Source: Candidatus Moraniibacteriota bacterium
GTDB lineage: Bacteria > Patescibacteriota > Minisyncoccia > Moranbacterales > DUUL01
Reading direction: 5' to 3'
Length of the DNA stretch: 48,080 bases
Assembly (NCBI GenBank): GCA_027008775.1
Contig: JALVDV010000009.1
Coordinates: 1-48,080, forward strand
Below are positions 20,548 to 31,318 of this stretch, piece by piece (position 1 is the stretch's first letter; each line of letters starts with the position of its first letter). The translations under genes and the position numbers were made by a program. The notes below the pieces were generated by a model. It saw only the letters and a list, made by a program, of their open reading frames with translations. It ran no database searches and was not told the origin of the DNA.

Positions 20548-23403
20548 TTAAACCACCAAATTAATCAATCTGCCTGGGACAAAGATTGTTTTTTTGATTT
20601 CTTTGCCCTCGGTGTATTTTTTTATTTTCTCACTGGCCAGAGCTTTTTCCTTGGCTTCTTTTTCGGAAATATCCGCTGGGACTTTTATTTTATCTCGCAC
20701 TTTGCCATTTACTTGGATGACCAACTCTGTGGTTTCTTCTTGAATAAATTTAGAATCATATTGAGGCCATTTTTGGTCTAAAATAAAATCTTTTTTGCCC
20801 AACTGTTCCCATAAATATTGGCTAAGGTGGGGAGCGAAGGGAGAAAGTAAAATCAGAAAGTTTTCCATTACTTTTAGCAAAGTCGCGGAACTACGCGGAC
20901 TTGACGCTGAACCACGCAGAATATTTTTTCCCACGCCACTTTGTATTCTTTCTGCGTCCTTCTGCGTTTGTTCTACGTCTGTTTGCGGCTGCGAAACGAT
21001 TCGTGAAGCGGTATTAATAAAAATCATCAATTTGCTGATAGCCGTGTTGAATTTTAGTTCTTCTATATCTTCAGTGACCCCTTTGATTGTTTTATGCAGA
21101 ATAAATGGTAATTTTTTGTCTATCTCAAAACTTTTTCCTTCCCGGCAATCAATCAAATTTTTTTCTTGAAAAATTTTCCAAACTTTTTGCAAAAAATTGT
21201 AAACTCCTTTAACACCCTCCTCTTTCCACATTACGTCTTCCTCTAAAGGACCGGCAAACATCATATACATTCGCGTGGCATCGGCTCCAAATTGTTTGAC
21301 CATATCGTCAGGGTTAACTACATTGCCTTTGGATTTGCTCATTTTCATACCATTTTTATCCAAAACCATCCCTTGGTGACGCAATTTCAAAAATGGCTCA
21401 TTGAAGCTAACCAGTCCCATTTTATACATCGCTTTCACAAAAAATCGGGCATACAAAAGATGCATATAAGTATGCTCCGCTCCGCCGATATATAAATCTA
21501 CCGGCAACCATCTTTTTAATTTCTCCGGACTGCAAAATTCTTTTTCGTTTTCCGGATCGGGATAACGCAAGAAATACCAAGAAGAATCCACAAAAGTATC
21601 CATGGTATCCACTTCCGGTGTCCAACCTTTACCAAAAATTTTCTCCGTTCGCTCTTTCAACTCTTTTGATTTCGCCAAAGGCGCCGTTCCGGTCGGCTTA
21701 AAATCCACATCTTCCGGTAGCAACCACGGTAAATTTTCCTCACCGACAAATTTCGCTTCACCTTCCGGCGAATAAACAATTGGAATTGGACAGCCCCAAT
21801 AGCGTTGCCGAGAAATGGACCAATCCCGCAAACGATAATTAGTCGTCATCTCTCCACCCACAAATTCCGTAATCGCTTTCTTCGCCTCCTCGCTGTTCAT
21901 ACCGTCAAATTGTCCGGAGTTAATTAATACATTTTTACTAATAGAATGAAAGTTAATTATTCTTTTCGCACTCAAATTTTTTTTATATCCAAAATAATCG
22001 TGACTTTCAAATTCTAAAACTGTGCTTGTCCTTGATATTATCTTAGTTTTATTTGGATGAGTATGTTTCAACACCCAATCAAAAAAATTATTGATTTTTT
22101 CTTGTGCGTCTATTTTAAACTTACTATCTACTACATACTTAATCCTATATTTAGTTACATATCTAATCGGCAAATCATATTTTTTAGCAAACTCAAAATC
22201 CCTCTCATCATGTGCCGGGACTGCCATAATTGCTCCGGTTCCGTATCCGCCTAAAACATAGTCCGCTACAAAAATCGGAATCTCTGCTTCTGACGAAACC
22301 GCGGACTCACGCGGACTTAACGCCGAACCACGCAGAATATTTTTTTTCACGTCCTTCTGTATCTGTTCTGCGTCGGTTTGCGATTGCGAAAGCATTTTCG
22401 CAATAGCCGGGTTAATCGCCACCAATCCCTCCAATTTTACACCTGTTTTCTCTTTACTTTCCAACCTTTCCATTTCCGTTTTATTCTTCGCCCGCTCTAT
22501 ATACTTTTTCACTTCACTCCAGTTTTTAATTTCCAATTTCAATTTTTCTATCAACGGATGTTCCGGCGCCAGTACTAAATAAGTCGCGCCAAAGAGAGTG
22601 TCCGGTCTTGTGGTAAATACAGAAATTTCATCATTCAAAGTTTCACGTTCTTCCGTGTTAGTCTGCGTTAAGTCTGCGTCGGTCTGCGAAGATTTCTTTA
22701 TTCTGAAAGAAATCTTAGCTCCTTCCGACTTCCCTATCCAATTAATCTGATTCTTCTTCGTCGCTTCCGGCCAGTCCACTTTGTCCAAGTCGTTGATTAA
22801 ATCCTCGGCAAAGTCGGTAATTTTGAAAAACCAACCGGGTACTTCTTTTTGCTCAATCTCCGTTTTACATCGTTCGCATTTTCCGTTTTCCACTTGCTCG
22901 TTGGCAATGCCCGTATTGCAAGAAGGACACCAGTTTATCTTATCTGTCTTTCGCTCCACCAAACCGTTTTCAAAAAACTTGCCGAAAAGCCATTGGGTCC
23001 ATTTGTAATAGGACGAGTCGGAAGTATAAATCAAGTGATCCAAATCATGCCCCAAGCCGAGCATTTTCATTTGCCGAATATAGTTTTCGGTATTCTTTTT
23101 GGTGGTTTCTTTGGGATGAATACCGGTTTTGACAGCGTAATTTTCCGCCGGCAAACCGAAAGAATCAAAACCTTGGGGGTGCAAAACATCAAAACCCCGC
23201 AACCTTTTGTAGCGGTAAATTATGTCCGAAGCGGTGTAGCTTTCCGTGTGTCCCATATGCAAACCATCCCCGGAAGGATACGGAAACATATCCAAGACAT
23301 AATACTTAGGTTTGTCTTTTTGGTCACGATGAAAATAAGCCTTATTTTCCTCCCATTTTTTCTGCACTTCTTTTTCAATTTTTCTCGGGTTGTATTTTTT
23401 CAT
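20548..23403 (-). CDS. leuS: Leucyl-tRNA synthetase with several insertions
   Basis: MFPYPSG, HMGH, FTTRPDT, DWSISRQRYWG, KMSKS and QVNGKVR motifs. Confidence 0.97.
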   Translation of the reverse strand: MKKYNPRKIEKEVQKKWEENKAYFHRDQKDKPKYYVLDMFPYPSGDGLHMGHTESYTASDIIYRYKRLRGFDVLHPQGFDSFGLPAENYAVKTGIHPKETTKKNTENYIRQMKMLGLGHDLDHLIYTSDSSYYKWTQWLFGKFFENGLVERKTDKINWCPSCNTGIANEQVENGKCERCKTEIEQKEVPGWFFKITDFAEDLINDLDKVDWPEATKKNQINWIGKSEGAKISFRIKKSSQTDADLTQTNTEERETLNDEISVFTTRPDTLFGATYLVLAPEHPLIEKLKLEIKNWSEVKKYIERAKNKTEMERLESKEKTGVKLEGLVAINPAIAKMLSQSQTDAEQIQKDVKKNILRGSALSPRESAVSSEAEIPIFVADYVLGGYGTGAIMAVPAHDERDFEFAKKYDLPIRYVTKYRIKYVVDSKFKIDAQEKINNFFDWVLKHTHPNKTKIISRTSTVLEFESHDYFGYKKNLSAKRIINFHSISKNVLINSGQFDGMNSEEAKKAITEFVGGEMTTNYRLRDWSISRQRYWGCPIPIVYSPEGEAKFVGEENLPWLLPEDVDFKPTGTAPLAKSKELKERTEKIFGKGWTPEVDTMDTFVDSSWYFLRYPDPENEKEFCSPEKLKRWLPVDLYIGGAEHTYMHLLYARFFVKAMYKMGLVSFNEPFLKLRHQGMVLDKNGMKMSKSKGNVVNPDDMVKQFGADATRMYMMFAGPLEEDVMWKEEGVKGVYNFLQKVWKIFQEKNLIDCREGKSFEIDKKLPFILHKTIKGVTEDIEELKFNTAISKLMIFINTASRIVSQPQTDVEQTQKDAERIQSGVGKNILRGSASSPRSSATLLKVMENFLILLSPFAPHLSQYLWEQLGKKDFILDQKWPQYDSKFIQEETTELVIQVNGKVRDKIKVPADISEKEAKEKALASEKIKKYTEGKEIKKTIFVPGRLINLVV
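20884..20993. repeat. In-frame imperfect palindromic element inside leuS (copy C)
   Basis: Arms built of ACGC(A/G/T)GA units at 10-11 nt period in inverted orientation; encodes SQPQTDVEQTQKDAE...KNILRGSASSPRSSA. Confidence 0.8.
22300..22388. repeat. In-frame imperfect palindromic element inside leuS (copy B)
   Basis: Homologous to 20884-20993; encodes SQSQTDAEQIQKDVKKNILRGSALSPRESA. Confidence 0.8.
22651..22688. repeat. Single arm of the same leuS element (copy A)
   Basis: TTCCGTGTTAGTCTGCGTTAAGTCTGCGTCGGTCTGCG; encodes SQTDADLTQTNTE. Confidence 0.7.
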
Positions 23404-25573: not shown

Positions 25574-25901
25574 CTAACATATGATTCCAGATAAAGCAAC
25601 AGAAAAAGTTGTGATTTGTTCCTAAGATACTGACTGTTTCCAGAACACCGGCCTACATCTTGGGCGACTCTGTTTTTTTATTATGATGTTATTGATAATT
25701 TCATAATAAAAAGCTCGAGCGATTTGTTGTTGACAATATAAGCAACCAACTTTGGACAGTTCATTTTTATTTATATTTATGAACAGCACAACAACTGCTC
25801 CATAAAATTTGTATCTTATTTAGTGCGCCTTGTTTGCGTAAATAGATCAATAATCAACTGGAAAGAGTATTATGATATTATTGATAATATCATAATACTT
25901 A

Positions 25902-26022
25902 CCCTATAAACCCCCAGCATAGCTGGGGTGTATATTTGAAGGCATTTAACGTATGATAAAACCGTCCAGCCGGCAATTCGGCCGGCAGACTCTAAGCCAC
26001 CGGCAGAGCCGGTGGTCGATTA
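25902..26022 (+). mobile_element. Non-autonomous IS200-like miniature element (ends only, no tnpA)
   Basis: Left hairpin CTATAAACCCCCAGCATAGCTGGGG and right hairpin AAGCCACCGGCAGAGCCGGTGG..ATTA resemble IS200 subterminal hairpins (from recall); only about 120 bp in total. Confidence 0.65.
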
Positions 26023-26087
26023 CTTTAGTGCTAGTTGAGAGATTTCGTTTTTATTTGCGAGTGCAAAAATATTTATTTGTAATCTTT

Positions 26088-26585
26088 TTAAAGCCTGATG
26101 AGTTTTAGTTTGCCACTATCAGTATCCCAAACAGCAAAAGTGGCGGGGTAACGAATATTAGCGACATTGCCGGGGTTTATTAATCGGCAATGACCAATTT
26201 TCTCCTCCCAAGGTTGATGGGTGTGTCCATAGAAGACCAGGTCGTATTTTCCGCTGACTGCCAATTCACGAGCTTTTTCCGGAAAATGAACAAAGGCAAC
26301 TTTATATCCATCAAATTCCGCTTCTCCTACGGAAGGGAATATTTTTAAATTTGTTCCGGCAAACTTTTCACTCAAATTTTTATAGTCCCAATAGCCGGCG
26401 TCCATATTGCCCGGCACCAACAAAATTTTGCCGGGAAAGTTGGTTTGCAAAAATTCCACAGTTTCCTCCGAAGCGGTATCTCCGCAACAGATGATTGTTT
26501 CAACACTCTCTTTTTGACAATAATCCAAAACTTTTTGCAAATTAGCCAGATTATCGTGAATGTCGGAAATAATTGCGATTTTCAT
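26088..26585 (-). CDS. Metallophosphoesterase, YfcE/MJ0936 family
   Basis: SDIHDN, CGD, GNMD, GHTH and NPG motifs. Confidence 0.92.
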   Translation of the reverse strand: MKIAIISDIHDNLANLQKVLDYCQKESVETIICCGDTASEETVEFLQTNFPGKILLVPGNMDAGYWDYKNLSEKFAGTNLKIFPSVGEAEFDGYKVAFVHFPEKARELAVSGKYDLVFYGHTHQPWEEKIGHCRLINPGNVANIRYPATFAVWDTDSGKLKLIRL

Positions 26586-26975
26586 TTTTGTTTGAAAAAA
26601 TATTTACTTGAGAAAATGATTCTTGAAAATATTCTAAATAGAAATCAGCGGGCTCTTAAAAAACCACACAATCACCAACTCAAACACAATTACCGTCAAT
26701 AACTCAAAATACTATTATGATATTATCAATAATATCATAATGATTATATTCTCACCAATATATCGCCCGGCCTTGATAAACCGTATAATTGCAAGGGTGA
26801 TACGCAACATACTTTGTGAGCCTTGGAACTACTGCACTCCCCTTATTATGATATTATTGATAATATCATAATAACAAATTTTGCTTCGCCTGTATTGAGT
26901 GGCTATTATAAATGCTCCGTCCTTAGAAAGAGAGAGTTCTCGCTGGATTAAATTACGGCCGTGACTCTTCCAGTT

Positions 26976-27269
26976 TTAATTCTTTTCATTCAACAATTTT
27001 TCAAAAAAGTTCAACACCTTTTTCCCTCTGGGAGTGATTGTATGTAAAACTTCCATATTGGAATATTTTTTGTAAATGAAACCGGCCTTCTCCAGTTTTT
27101 GAATATGAGAAGCGGCTGTTTGATATTGAATCTTTACCTTGTCTGCAATTTTTTCAACGTTTAAGGCGGGAATTTTTTCAATCAAGATTAAAATTTTTAT
27201 TCGTTTTTTGTTGGCCAAAGCTTTGAAATAAATTTCCAATAGCTTTATTTGTTTCTCGCTGAAATTCAT
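26976..27269 (-). CDS. ArsR/SmtB-fold winged-helix DNA-binding protein (no cysteines)
   Basis: FKALANKKRIKIL..LNVEKIA..YQTAASHIQKLEKAGFI pattern; flanked on both sides by the 30-bp palindrome. Confidence 0.88.
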   Translation of the reverse strand: MNFSEKQIKLLEIYFKALANKKRIKILILIEKIPALNVEKIADKVKIQYQTAASHIQKLEKAGFIYKKYSNMEVLHTITPRGKKVLNFFEKLLNEKN

Positions 27270-27471
27270 ATTTTTCTTGTTTAAAATTTAACCCCTCCCC
27301 TATTATGATATTATCAATAATATCATAATAAAGCAAGTCCCCTTATAATAACGCCTTGTTTGTCAAACACATCGCAACCCGGGAAAACACTGAAGAGATA
27401 AGCAACTAAAATACTAAAAAAGCAAACAACTCTTGAGGTTTAATAAAAGGTACTATGTCAGTCGCTGTCTT

Positions 27472-28719
27472 TTATTGATTTTTTAAAATATTTTTTAACT
27501 CTTCTGTTTTTACAATTTGTCCTTCTTTGTTTGTCCGCTTTTTTAATTCTACCCCGCCGGCTTGCAGAGAGCGAGAAGAAACAACTAAACGCCAGGGAAA
27601 ACCGAGCAGATCGGCATCGGCGAATTTTTCCCCCGGCTTCTTGTCGGGACGGTCGTCCCAAAAAACTTCCACTCCTTCTTTGCGCAAATCTTGATAAATT
27701 TTTTCCGCTTCGTCTCCGGCATCAATATCAATCAAGTGAACTTGGAAAGGCGATACCTCCGCCGGCCAGACAATTCCCTTGTCGTCGGCAAAAACTTCCA
27801 CTATCGTCCCCAGCAAACGACTGATGCCGATTCCGTAACTGCCCATAAAAACAAAATGTTCTTTCCCGTTTTTATCTTTGAATTTCAAATCCAAGGGCTC
27901 GGAAAATTTTGTTCCCAGAGTAAAGATATTGCCGACTTCAATGGCCTTGGCTTCTTTCAGTTTATTTTTATTTTTGATACCTAATTCGGCCAATACCTCA
28001 TCGTTAAAAACCTCTCTGTTGACAGCCAAATTTTTTTCTTGGTCAATGTAAATAATGTCTTCACCCGCTTCGGAAAGAGTTTGAAATTCGTGAGAATATT
28101 TGGAAAAAGTTCCGCCACTGGCAAATGTTAAATATGTTAAATCACCCAGACCGACCCTGCGAAAAATGTTTTGGTAGGCCTTTTGGGCTTGTTCGTAAAA
28201 TTTATAATGCTCTTCTTCATTTTTGGAAAAGGAATAAAGAGCTTTCCAATAAAATTCTCGCCCGCGCATCAAACCGGACTTGGCGCGTTTTTCATTGCGA
28301 AACATGGTTCTGATATCGTAGGGATAGGCAGGTAAATCCCTGTGAGAAGAAATGAATGTTTTCATCAAATTGGTCATAGCTTCTTCGTGCGTAAAGGCCA
28401 AGCCCAAATCGGAACCGCTTTTGAGTTTGGTTTTAAACCAATTGTCAACCAATTCATCGTCCCAGCGATTAGTCTTTTCCCAATTAACTTTATTCTGCAG
28501 AACGGAATTTTTCATTTGTTGCCCGCCAATTTTATCCATCTCCTCTTTAATGATGGCGCTTATTTTTTCCAGAACGCGCAGGCCCAGGGGGAGCAATGAA
28601 TAGACTCCGGCCATTTCTTTGTAAACATAACCGGCGCGAATGAGCAGTTGAGCGTTGCGACTGACTTCATCTTTGGGGGCGAATTTTTGTGTTTTGGTAA
28701 ACAGTTCGGATTGTTTCAT
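27472..28719 (-). CDS. proS: Prolyl-tRNA synthetase, short form lacking the INS editing domain
   Basis: MKQSELF, LLIRAG, THEE, FRNE.R...GLMRGREF, IEVGNIF.LGTKFS and MGSYGIG motifs; 415 aa. Confidence 0.95.
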   Translation of the reverse strand: MKQSELFTKTQKFAPKDEVSRNAQLLIRAGYVYKEMAGVYSLLPLGLRVLEKISAIIKEEMDKIGGQQMKNSVLQNKVNWEKTNRWDDELVDNWFKTKLKSGSDLGLAFTHEEAMTNLMKTFISSHRDLPAYPYDIRTMFRNEKRAKSGLMRGREFYWKALYSFSKNEEEHYKFYEQAQKAYQNIFRRVGLGDLTYLTFASGGTFSKYSHEFQTLSEAGEDIIYIDQEKNLAVNREVFNDEVLAELGIKNKNKLKEAKAIEVGNIFTLGTKFSEPLDLKFKDKNGKEHFVFMGSYGIGISRLLGTIVEVFADDKGIVWPAEVSPFQVHLIDIDAGDEAEKIYQDLRKEGVEVFWDDRPDKKPGEKFADADLLGFPWRLVVSSRSLQAGGVELKKRTNKEGQIVKTEELKNILKNQ

Positions 28720-29763
28720 AAATTTGTTTTCTCTAAAAATTGTGATTTCCTATCTTAATTAAACACCAAAAAACCGATTGCGACAAGGGAGGAGAGAAGT
28801 CATTTACCGGCTTGAGATAAATTGCGAGGTTGTAATGTTAACTATGAATTACCATAAGCAATTAAAAAACGGGAACTGCGAATAATAAGCGATTATTCTT
28901 TGAATATTATGATATTATCAATAATATCATAATACCCATTTTTGGTTTTGATTATTTTCTTGGTCAATCTTTTTTAGATTATTGTCTTTTGACTGCAATC
29001 CTGGTTTAAATCTGAGTGATATTAAAATTAAAACAATGAAAAAAAGAAACAACAATGAGCTATAATAAGCTGGGAACAAAAATAGTTTATTTTACAGCTT
29101 ACAAATAGATATTGGGGATAATCGACAAAAGATAAACTGTCATTTTCAGATCAATTCAATCTGATTTTAAGTATTATGATATTATTGATAATTTCATAAT
29201 ACTATTGTTTTTTTGATAACTTGGAATTTCCCAGGATAAATTATATGTCCTGAGAATTAATGATGGGGTGACAACGACAAAGCAAAAATCTTAAAATTTT
29301 ATTTTCCGAATCGGGTGAACTTTTGTTATTATGATATTATTGATAATATCATAATACCTTTCTTTTAGCTGATTATTGTTCCCTGGTAAGTCACTGGTTC
29401 AAAGAATCATAAACGACAATTTGTCAGTTGGATTTCACTTTTGTCTATTATGATATTATCAATAATATCATAATAGCTTTTTTTGTTGGTCAGTTGGTGG
29501 GCTTGGAGAAAGCAAATAGAGGACAGATTATGATTTGCGAAATGGGTGATTTTATTCCTAGAAACAGGGCTTTTTGCCGGATTAAATATACGGGACAATT
29601 GATTTTTTCTTGTTGTGATATTGTTACAATTTATGACATCATTGTAATAGCAACCGTTCTTTCCGGAATTTACCGATTCCAAATGCATTATGAATACTGA
29701 AAAATTGGTCGTGAGTAGAAAACCGAGAGCTGTGAGTTGTTGTTCAGAAAATTAAATAAAGAG

Positions 29764-29783
29764 TTATCCACAGTTTTTCCACA
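29764..29783 (+). promoter_or_regulatory. Two tandem DnaA boxes
   Basis: TTATCCACA (29764-29772, consensus) and TTTTCCACA (29775-29783, one mismatch), 11-bp period. Confidence 0.65.
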
Positions 29784-29792
29784 GTGACTTGT

Positions 29793-29820
29793 TTGACATT
29801 TTTTGAGAAGATTTTATAAT
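29793..29820 (+). promoter_or_regulatory. Consensus sigma70 promoter
   Basis: TTGACA-N16-TATAAT. Confidence 0.75.
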
Positions 29821-29872
29821 GAGAGTGCATCGTTGTTTATTGCGATGACAAAATGAAAAGGAGGAATTTTTT

Positions 29873-29950
29873 ATGAAACGGTTTTTTTTCAGTTCTTTTG
29901 AGATAGGTGTATCTGGCGCATACAGGCAGCAGACAGAGACCAGGCCATAA
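29873..29950 (+). CDS. Putative 25-aa small peptide MKRFFFSSFEIGVSGAYRQQTETRP
   Basis: AAGGAGG RBS, consensus promoter upstream, terminator downstream; below the ORF-track cutoff. Confidence 0.5.
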   Translation: MKRFFFSSFEIGVSGAYRQQTETRP

Positions 29951-30081
29951 GATGCCAGAGCCCGGTAGGAGACGCGGACCATGCAGATAGTCTTTAGGAG
30001 GCCGCGGGACGGCCTCTAGCAAACACAAAGATAGCCTCTCTTGAGGTGTAAAAATAAAAAATCTCCGCAACACAACCACCA

Positions 30082-30119
30082 CCCCCAATCCTCTAACAGG
30101 ATTGGGGGCTTTTTCTTTT
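30082..30119 (+). terminator. Intrinsic terminator
   Basis: CCCCCAATCCT-CTAAC-AGGATTGGGGG then CTTTTTCTTTT. Confidence 0.85.
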
Positions 30120-30982
30120 GTGAGGGACAACTTATCAATTTAAAATTGACTTTTTTCAACAATTTATTCTTAAAAACTTAAATGACAAGATCTTTATTTC
30201 GCCTAAGTCTGTGGTCTTTAAATGTAGCTTTGAAAATTACTGCGAATCTCTTAAACGGAAACCAATTTGTTGATTCTCTTGTCCTCAGAAATACTTACAA
30301 CTCAGAAGATAAACAAATAATAATCCGTTTGGAAAAAAGTTAAAAAGATAGTGATATCTTGAGGAAGGGATAGTAAATCTAGCAAAAAGAGAGGCGTGAA
30401 CTGTGTCTAATCTATAAATTATGAACCGTAATGAATTGCAAATTATAAACCGGCTGAACTTTCTGTATTATGAAATTATCAATAATTTCATAATGCCTTT
30501 ATTTTCACCTCCACTGATACAGTGTTAAATTTGAGTAAATTATGATGAATAGGAAATTAGCTGTAAACGATAAATTAACTAGTTGTATTTTATGATTATG
30601 CCTTTTTTATTATGATATTATTGATAATATCATAATGCCCTTTTCTTTTTAGCGGAATATTGCCTTCAAATAAGTCTCGGCTAAAAAATCAGGGGTGATA
30701 ATTTGTCGGTCAGTTTTCACTTTTGTCTATTATGATATTATCAATAATATCATAATACTCTTTCATTTTTTTGTCAGTTACTCATCGGATTGCCAAATCA
30801 TTAAATTGGCAGAATTATTGCGAATTAAAAAATCCGGTACTTGAAGTCCGGTAAATAAATCAAAAACTTTAACTTTTTACCTAATTGCATTATTCCGTTT
30901 TGTAAATACTTGCAAAAAGTCTGATTCGCCCTTACCGGAAATCATCAGAATTAAATCAACGAACAGAATAGAAGTGACAGCT

Positions 30983-31008
30983 TATACCCCCGAAATATAC
31001 CCCCGAAA
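30983..31008. repeat. 13-bp tandem duplication
   Basis: TATACCCCCGAAA x2. Confidence 0.85.
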
Positions 31009-31318
31009 TCTGACATATTGTGAGTGTTAGGATTTTCCGGTTTAATCTTAAAGACAAAGGCGGGGACACTTTTAGAAATATTGTTGTCAGAAATTGATTT
31101 TTGGTGTTTAATGGACAAGGGAAAACAGTTTGTGTAATTGTAATTCTGAGAAATATTGCCGACTTAGTTTGAGTCCGTACTTCGGTTTGTCTTTAGTCAA
31201 TTTTATATAAAGACTGCGCCTCTTTTCCGGAATTTGTTTGTTTTTTCTCATTTTTTATTTGCTCCCAAAAATATTTTTCCCGAATCATGATTTTCACTCT
31301 TATTTAGCCTCTTATTTT

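Follow-up and report, generated by a model that had tools for sequence, protein, structure and literature searches.

The stretch of DNA analysed here (the window, 48,080 bp) comes from an uncultivated bacterium of the Patescibacteria (Candidatus Moraniibacteriota) and carries twelve copies of a 30-bp palindrome clustered around a gene for a 97-amino-acid winged helix-turn-helix (wHTH) protein. With somewhat better than even confidence, we read gene and palindrome together as an autoregulated ArsR-type repressor/operator module whose operator has been multiplied in this genome. That the wHTH probably recognises the palindrome is, for a claim drawn from sequence, well supported by their co-location and by their co-variation across related modules. 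The window is contig C9 of the host assembly (hereafter G000), which comprises 929 kb in 11 contigs and is 96% complete.

When up to three mismatches were allowed, twelve matches to TATTATGATATTAT-NN-ATAATATCATAATA were found in the window, at all twelve starts reported by the first-pass annotation, compared with 0 in 100 dinucleotide-preserving shuffles. Seven copies are perfect, three have one mismatch, one has two and one has three, and no further copy occurs in the rest of the window beyond the twelve starts, which run from 25679 to 30728. The full palindrome reads TATTAT-GAT-ATTAT-CA-ATAAT-ATC-ATAATA (layout 14-2-14), and since the centre dinucleotide is CA or TG in all twelve, each copy has an orientation. 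As had been claimed, copies occupy every intergenic gap of the locus (four, between 25451 and 31237), and seven lie in a gene-poor tract. The features are given below, with the strand where one is assigned.

25679-25708: palindrome copy, 2 mismatches; 229 bp from the start of a CDP-alcohol phosphatidyltransferase gene
25868-25897: palindrome copy, perfect
26713-26742: palindrome copy, 1 mismatch; 128 bp upstream of a metallophosphoesterase gene start (26585) and downstream of the wHTH gene
26844-26873: palindrome copy, perfect; downstream bracket, 102 bp past the wHTH stop codon
26976-27269, minus strand: wHTH gene, 97 amino acids, without cysteine, predicted ArsR/SmtB fold (Pfam, structure model, fold match, dimer model), putative palindrome binder
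27301-27330: palindrome copy, perfect; upstream bracket, 31 bp before the wHTH start codon, candidate auto-operator
28905-28934: palindrome copy, perfect; 186 bp upstream of a class II tRNA synthetase gene
29172-29201: palindrome copy, 1 mismatch
29327-29356: palindrome copy, perfect
29446-29475: palindrome copy, perfect
30466-30495: palindrome copy, 3 mismatches, including the symmetric pair T9A/A22T
30608-30637: palindrome copy, 1 mismatch
30728-30757: palindrome copy, perfect; 481 bp upstream of a PEGA-domain protein gene
28720-31237: gene-poor tract with 7 of the 12 copies, no open reading frame (ORF) of at least 100 amino acids

The evidence that ties the protein to the palindrome comes from other genomes. 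Among 40 relatives no homologue of the wHTH exceeded 38% identity, and the motif was found only in G002, which belongs to the same family and another genus. In the species-level genome collection the exact 28-base core occurred at 20 loci in eight other Patescibacteria assemblies, and searching viral contigs gave 0 matches. Seven genomes reached via these loci carried 1, 5, 3, 7, 2, 1 and 1 palindromes at no more than three mismatches. An orthologue is present in five of the nine motif-bearing genomes, and in four (G042, G043, G044 and G045; 58-65% identity) orthologues lie between or beside palindromes. Specifically, G045 has two palindromes in total, one on either side of its orthologue, G043 and G044 likewise have palindromes at both sides, and G042 has three separate paralogous modules with three different inner triplets (GAT, GTT and ACG). 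A metagenome scan added 13 loci with seven new distinct proteins. Orthologue identity spans 58-69% overall, and the comparison set comprises 14 distinct modules from genomes and metagenome loci.

Across this set a palindrome of the frame TATTAT-nnn-ATTAT-nn-ATAAT-nnn-ATAATA stands just past the stop codon in 14 of 14 modules, and in several genomes it directly precedes the next gene. Another lies about 10-60 bp before the start codon in 12 of the 13 assessable modules, the exception being L038, which has none; L061 is truncated by its contig end and hence unassessable. The inner triplets are GAT, GAG, GTT, AGT, ACG and AAT, plus degenerate forms, and nine of the 12 modules having both sites show an identical symmetric triplet on all four half-sites. 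Because a single position, tktN-wHTH-mnmA, carries GAT, AGT or GTT depending on the organism, the triplet is argued to have changed in place. In the protein tree a clade with Val-54 in the recognition helix (support 96/93) contains all non-GA triplet classes, while Ser/Thr-54 proteins pair with GAT and GAG; residue 54 is thus a candidate for reading the variable triplet. With same-frame palindromes flanking the orthologues and triplets that co-vary with them, the earlier proposal that the 97-amino-acid wHTH binds the motif appears strongly supported at the sequence level. The related expectation that homologues would have palindromes of their own was borne out as flanking, co-varying sites in the 14 modules, but these are two sites each and not arrays.

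The protein itself is predicted to have the ArsR/SmtB fold and is modelled as a dimer. Its Pfam matches are MarR (PF01047; 34.7 bits against a cut-off of 24.6) and HTH_24, and it falls below the cut-offs of the curated ArsR profiles, Pfam HTH_5 (18.8 against 22) and NCBIfam NF033788 (36.7 against 55), although the latter, which describes an ArsR/SmtB metalloregulator subfamily, is its top NCBIfam match. An AlphaFold2 monomer model built on 24 relatives (mean predicted local distance difference test score, pLDDT, 94.6) has the order a1-a2-a3-a4-b1-b2-a5 of the ArsR/SmtB topology, with helices at residues 5-18, 21-32, 38-45 and 49-62, strands at 65-70 and 73-78, and a last helix at 80-94. The top Foldseek matches of this model are CzrA (template-modelling score, TM, 0.87), NolR, SmtB, HlyU and CadC. 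By sequence the top match among solved structures is AspA of pNOB8 (E = 3.6e-6), with Lmo1102, MntR, SlyA and HlyU close behind; by fold AspA is only 21st (TM 0.67).

A homodimer model scored 0.87 against 0.00 for the best of three controls. Among proteins of solved structure, this mark is attained for 20 of 30 one-chain pairs and for 1 of 23 single chains. Since ArsR-type dimers are among the solved structures, the pass may reflect likeness only. The runs agreed in at least 95% of contacts, with a partner pLDDT of at least 91, and place the interface in helices 1 and 5 (residues 1-32 and 81-93). The translation contains no cysteine, as the first-pass annotation had noted, and no His/Asp/Glu metal site was seen in helix 5 in the alignments. 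The 24-sequence alignment has 22 invariant columns without a cysteine among them; the sole invariant histidine is H55, in the recognition helix, and H76, in strand 2, is nearly invariant. On the structure model the protein is thus best described as a metal-site-free member of the ArsR/SmtB fold. The close family is very small, since an exhaustive profile search (1.84 billion; 50%-identity representatives) returned 1 match at E <= 1e-30, 129 at E <= 1e-10 and 1232 at E <= 0.001, and a word-indexed protein search returned 13 proteins at E <= 1e-8. Plasmid and phage collections gave no match to the protein.

In the mechanism we propose, a wHTH homodimer would bind the 30-bp GAT palindrome. The copy 31 bp before the ATG (placed at about 30 bp in the first-pass annotation, which also correctly counted two downstream copies, at 26844 and 26713) would overlie the wHTH promoter or 5' leader and serve as a site of auto-repression, and paired sites would be bound cooperatively. 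With the operator multiplied to 44 copies in G000, 12 around the wHTH gene and the others in long intergenic regions, the protein would act there as a many-target regulator.

The genome-wide distribution is central to how the cluster should be read. Confinement of the palindrome to 5.1 kb, as first described, holds within the window but not in the genome: the 44 copies of G000 (no more than three mismatches; 22 perfect) are spread over 10 of the 11 contigs, and 32 of them sit on nine contigs other than that of the window. A control scan with the reversed pattern gave 0 matches in G000. GAT is the sole motif triplet class present, and 43 of the 44 copies have the same asymmetric CA/TG centre, which varies in other genomes. 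Only two copies are not outside crude ORFs (open reading frames of at least 100 amino acids), and these lie in 110-amino-acid ORFs that read through the palindrome. The copies in general have no conserved flanks and no target-site duplications, and a few spacers and flanks are common to different loci.

By a reading of the crude ORF list, the site-bearing gaps of G000 comprise 9 divergent, 13 tandem, 3 convergent and 1 undetermined, and 22 of the 25 classifiable gaps hold at least one gene start. The genes facing copies, by Pfam, encode ClpB, RuvA, GyrB, DnaX, TopA, a tyrosine recombinase, GroEL, ribonucleotide reductase, a Mur ligase (murF), Def, MurG, a PMT_2 glycosyltransferase, SmpB, an LTD protein, ComEC and an HtrA-like protease. 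Ten close pairs of copies elsewhere in G000 have spacings of 43-45, 53-56 or 64 bp. Of all periods scanned between 5 and 20 bp, 10.6 bp fits them best (R = 0.79, Rayleigh P = 7e-4), and the phasing keeps P = 0.004 with 8 non-redundant pairs, after two pairs with similar spacers were dropped. As a separate observation, a 308-bp stretch is held in common, at 85% identity, by C1:153765-154061 and C6:1-297, which are a contig end and a contig start; palindromes adjoin both, and the repeat may have broken the assembly.

The first-pass annotation had taken the array for a nucleoprotein platform rather than simple regulation. As framed here, the twelve-copy cluster would be a structural assembly (centromere-like, anchoring, SMC-loading or a titration sink) nucleated by the wHTH in the manner of AspA, and we consider this reading decidedly unlikely. 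The cluster is indeed dense: for its 3,747 bp of crude intergenic DNA 1.39 copies would be expected where 12 are present (about 9-fold; Poisson P = 3e-8); AspA, the centromere-binding wHTH of pNOB8, is the top sequence match among solved structures; the wHTH gene stands directly after smc in five fetched loci, which represent three distinct modules; and paired sites are helically phased. However, the scatter of 32 of the 44 copies over nine other contigs is the REP-like (repetitive extragenic palindromic) distribution that the annotation itself had named as telling against its proposal, and the other modules have two sites only. Moreover, no parA or parB adjoins the wHTH gene: a canonical ParB (ParB_N) and smc are encoded on C10 and dnaA on C6, the contigs being unordered. 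The GC-skew trend in the window is weak with no clear turn, CzrA, NolR and SmtB precede AspA by fold, and the location of 42 of the 44 copies outside crude ORFs contrasts with Noc, SlmA and MatP sites. Within the repressor/operator reading the cluster may still have a titration or organising role, because it is about 9-fold enriched over the intergenic expectation.

A functional constraint on the sites is suggested by G002, which has 16-17 copies. At least six of these precede paralogous genes that encode a family of secreted or membrane proteins (N-terminus MNKRNLIIG...); in the alignment they fall at one and the same position, with a conserved TTGACA-17-TATAAT promoter about 60-90 nt downstream. 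In the six upstream regions none of the 26 columns of the palindrome core is variable, against 57 of 90 flank columns (Fisher P = 7e-10); the palindrome has therefore stayed the same as the sequence around it diverged. A single member of this family is present in G000, preceded by a palindrome pair. The family loci are C7:75248-76313 in G000, whose product has no Pfam match, and L013-L024 in G002, and about 200 bp upstream of the genes can be aligned across the two genera, which suggests, on sequence, either transfer or strong constraint.

The G002 sites also bear on the idea that the palindrome works as an RNA hairpin which stabilises, processes or terminates transcripts, the wHTH being unrelated. 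The predicted hairpin has a 13-bp stem, a 4-nt loop and -9.9 kcal/mol, copies stand at either end of the wHTH transcript region, and arm changes are symmetric. No U-tract follows the hairpin, though, and there is no Rfam match; copies that lie in divergent promoter regions or 60-90 nt ahead of a promoter would lack a constant direction of transcription, and a protein clade that tracks the triplet class would be left without explanation. We therefore regard a hairpin function as highly improbable.

Several results weigh against the autoregulated repressor/operator module as we have described it. No orthologue was found in G002, where the best match has 36% identity and the assembly is 91% complete, nor in the single-copy genomes G041, G046 and G047. 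L061 was considered as the missing G002 orthologue and rejected, since it gives only short matches of 65-87% and so belongs to another organism. Outside G000 only 4 of 14 remote sites match the triplet of a resident module, and orphan triplet classes occur in G042 (AGT, ATG and ATT), G044 (GAT and GGT) and G043 (GAT). Copy positions in G000 and G002 are non-orthologous despite housekeeping proteins that are 55-82% identical, and where G002 carries a solo GAT copy, a strain with 96% identity to it over valS carries a GAG module. In G000 itself many copies lie 120-650 bp from the nearest start codon, 3 of the 25 gaps are convergent, and a fixed spacing of the copies to sigma-70-like promoters was looked for without any being found. 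Because 22 perfect copies and 43 with the same centre exceed what binding needs, copying by descent is indicated. Finally, since flanking sites and gene are inherited together, their co-variation could be plain linkage.

Much of this would suit a different explanation, in which the palindrome is a selfish, REP-like element that multiplies in intergenic DNA and passes from genome to genome, with the wHTH as cognate partner or cassette passenger and any regulation as a secondary effect. We hold it to be unlikely, though it accounts for a good part of the pattern: the identity of 22 of 44 copies over all 30 bp and the shared non-symmetric centre, the differing positions in G000 and G002, the orphan triplet classes without a cognate gene, and the GAG module that the strain 96% identical over valS has where G002 has a solo GAT copy. 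The patchiness of the 28-mer (eight other assemblies of the species-level collection, and 1 of 40 relatives), the position of 42 of 44 copies outside crude ORFs and the recurrence of some spacers and flanks at different loci also speak for it. Against it, target-site duplications and conserved flanks are absent, as is an associated transposase; motif and protein are missing from viral, phage and plasmid collections, and the 97-amino-acid wHTH has no catalytic domain. Perfect sites amid the diverging flanks of paralogous promoters, together with helically phased pairs, argue instead for function.

A link to RAYT or IS200 transposases was rejected, since the Y1 family (PF01797) is present in 25 of 41 genomes irrespective of the motif, which is in 2 of 41. 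In G000 the sole strong PF01797 gene (C1:127531-127896) has its nearest palindrome copies at distances of 1.6 and 2.7 kb, and its hairpins are unrelated to them. This IS200-type Y1 transposase gene, on the minus strand, is bounded by GC-rich hairpins (CCCCGCC...GGCGGGG), and a second transposase-like ORF adjoins it at 128395-129465 of C1.

One could also combine the two accounts, such that the palindrome is a self-propagating REP-like 30-bp operator, spreading without target duplications and read by the wHTH that it brackets, with orthogonal, co-diversifying classes and with clusters that form a nucleoprotein hub. We would give this combined version little credence, no more than the purely selfish one. 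If it were true, several mutually orthogonal classes of protein and element would coexist in one cell, and the twelve-copy cluster would be a hub that buffers free protein or organises the local chromosome.

Returning to the window, the wHTH gene has as neighbours a Metallophos_2 protein gene and a class II tRNA synthetase gene (tRNA-synt_2b core and HGTP anticodon domain), which we take to be ProRS, Pfam resolving only the G/H/P/S/T core. In the gene-poor tract the 45-nt left flanks of the copies at 29446 and 30728 are 85% identical, and these two copies share a local duplication. Three ORFs scanned in the tract had no Pfam match, and no Rfam family was found there, the whole window giving two tRNAs only. 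The tract also holds, at 29793-30118 on the plus strand, a near-consensus promoter (TTGACA, 16-nt spacer, TATAAT), downstream of which lie a strong Shine-Dalgarno sequence and a 25-codon ORF, MKRFFFSSFEIGVSGAYRQQTETRP. Beyond this ORF, a structured, G+C-rich RNA segment of about 150 nt leads to a clear intrinsic terminator. The element has a fold z-score of -2.25, no Rfam match and no homologue in the 40 relatives. At 29764-29783 a perfect DnaA box (TTATCCACA) and, 11 bp on (29775), a box with one mismatch lie immediately upstream of the -35 element of this promoter. An origin of replication (oriC) in the tract was considered and rejected: perfect DnaA boxes number 14 genome-wide, no 1-kb bin holds more than 3, and dnaA is on C6.

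Elsewhere in the window, the leucyl-tRNA synthetase ORF (20548-23403, minus strand) contains a G+C-rich repeat at 20871-21001, 22287-22396 and 22651-22688, present as a direct pair of copies, about 100 nt long and 76-77% identical, and as a partial copy in inverted orientation, all in frame. Because the copies encode similar inserted peptide segments (...QTDAEQIQKD...NILRGSA...), it looks like an in-frame repeated insertion element. In G000 as a whole, which is 96% complete, the models for the small bacterial signal recognition particle RNA (RF00169) and for 6S RNA (RF00013) had no match; RNase P RNA and transfer-messenger RNA (tmRNA) are both encoded on C10.

Very little is known of transcriptional control in the Patescibacteria (also called the candidate phyla radiation, CPR), which cannot be grown alone, and the predicted protein-site pair can be tested in vitro using synthetic DNA. 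The modules form a natural series of related wHTH proteins and of operators that differ only in a 3-bp core, with at least six classes, three of them in one genome. Such a system would be useful for studying how winged-helix specificity evolves, and orthogonal repressor/operator pairs might be drawn from it. How a binding site can multiply without recognisable marks of transposition is a further question, prompted by the 44 near-identical copies in 0.93 Mb. The literature searched held neither the motif strings nor a description of the module.

Among known systems, ParB-parS, Noc-NBS and MatP-matS each join one protein to many copies of one palindrome with local clustering. The present palindrome resembles their sites in copy number and local clustering, whereas the wHTH lacks a CTPase or ParB domain, the gene for a canonical ParB is on another contig (C10), 42 of 44 sites lie outside crude ORFs and the motif is restricted to few genomes. 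AspA of the Sulfolobus plasmid pNOB8 is a dimeric wHTH whose target, a 23-bp palindrome, lies upstream of the aspA gene; from there AspA spreads, and its partners ParB and ParA come from the same overlapping operon (PMC5120986). It is the best sequence match of the wHTH studied here among solved structures, and this wHTH gene likewise has a palindrome upstream, but no parB or parA follows, the ParB_N gene being on C10.

REP and BIME (bacterial interspersed mosaic element) sequences are short, dispersed intergenic palindromes, often paired, that can flank the gene of the protein presumed to recognise them, a REP-associated tyrosine transposase (RAYT). Dispersal between genes, frequent pairing and a flanked candidate recogniser gene are all found here too; in contrast, the flanked gene encodes a wHTH and not a Y1 HUH transposase, and the palindromes are perfect. 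NolR and HlyU are non-metal regulators of the ArsR family that have many targets or act upstream of promoters. They resemble the wHTH in fold (ranks 3-11, TM 0.74-0.79), in small size and in having no metal site, but sequence identity is 17-20%, and bracketing sites or co-varying site classes are not known to have been described for either.

The ArsR/SmtB repressors such as CzrA, SmtB and CadC share with the wHTH the same fold and topology (TM 0.83-0.87 to CzrA and SmtB), a dimer modelled through the first and last helices, and a long AT-rich inverted repeat by the protein's own promoter. A metal or metalloid site, built from a3N cysteines or from His/Asp/Glu in a5, is typical of these repressors but not universal; the wHTH has neither cysteine nor helix-5 metal site, and it scores below the curated arsR profile cut-offs. 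ArsR/SmtB operators are 12-2-12 inverted repeats (PMC8790569), whereas the present repeat is 14-2-14, with sites on either side of the gene, triplet classes that differ between modules, and up to 44 copies in a single genome.

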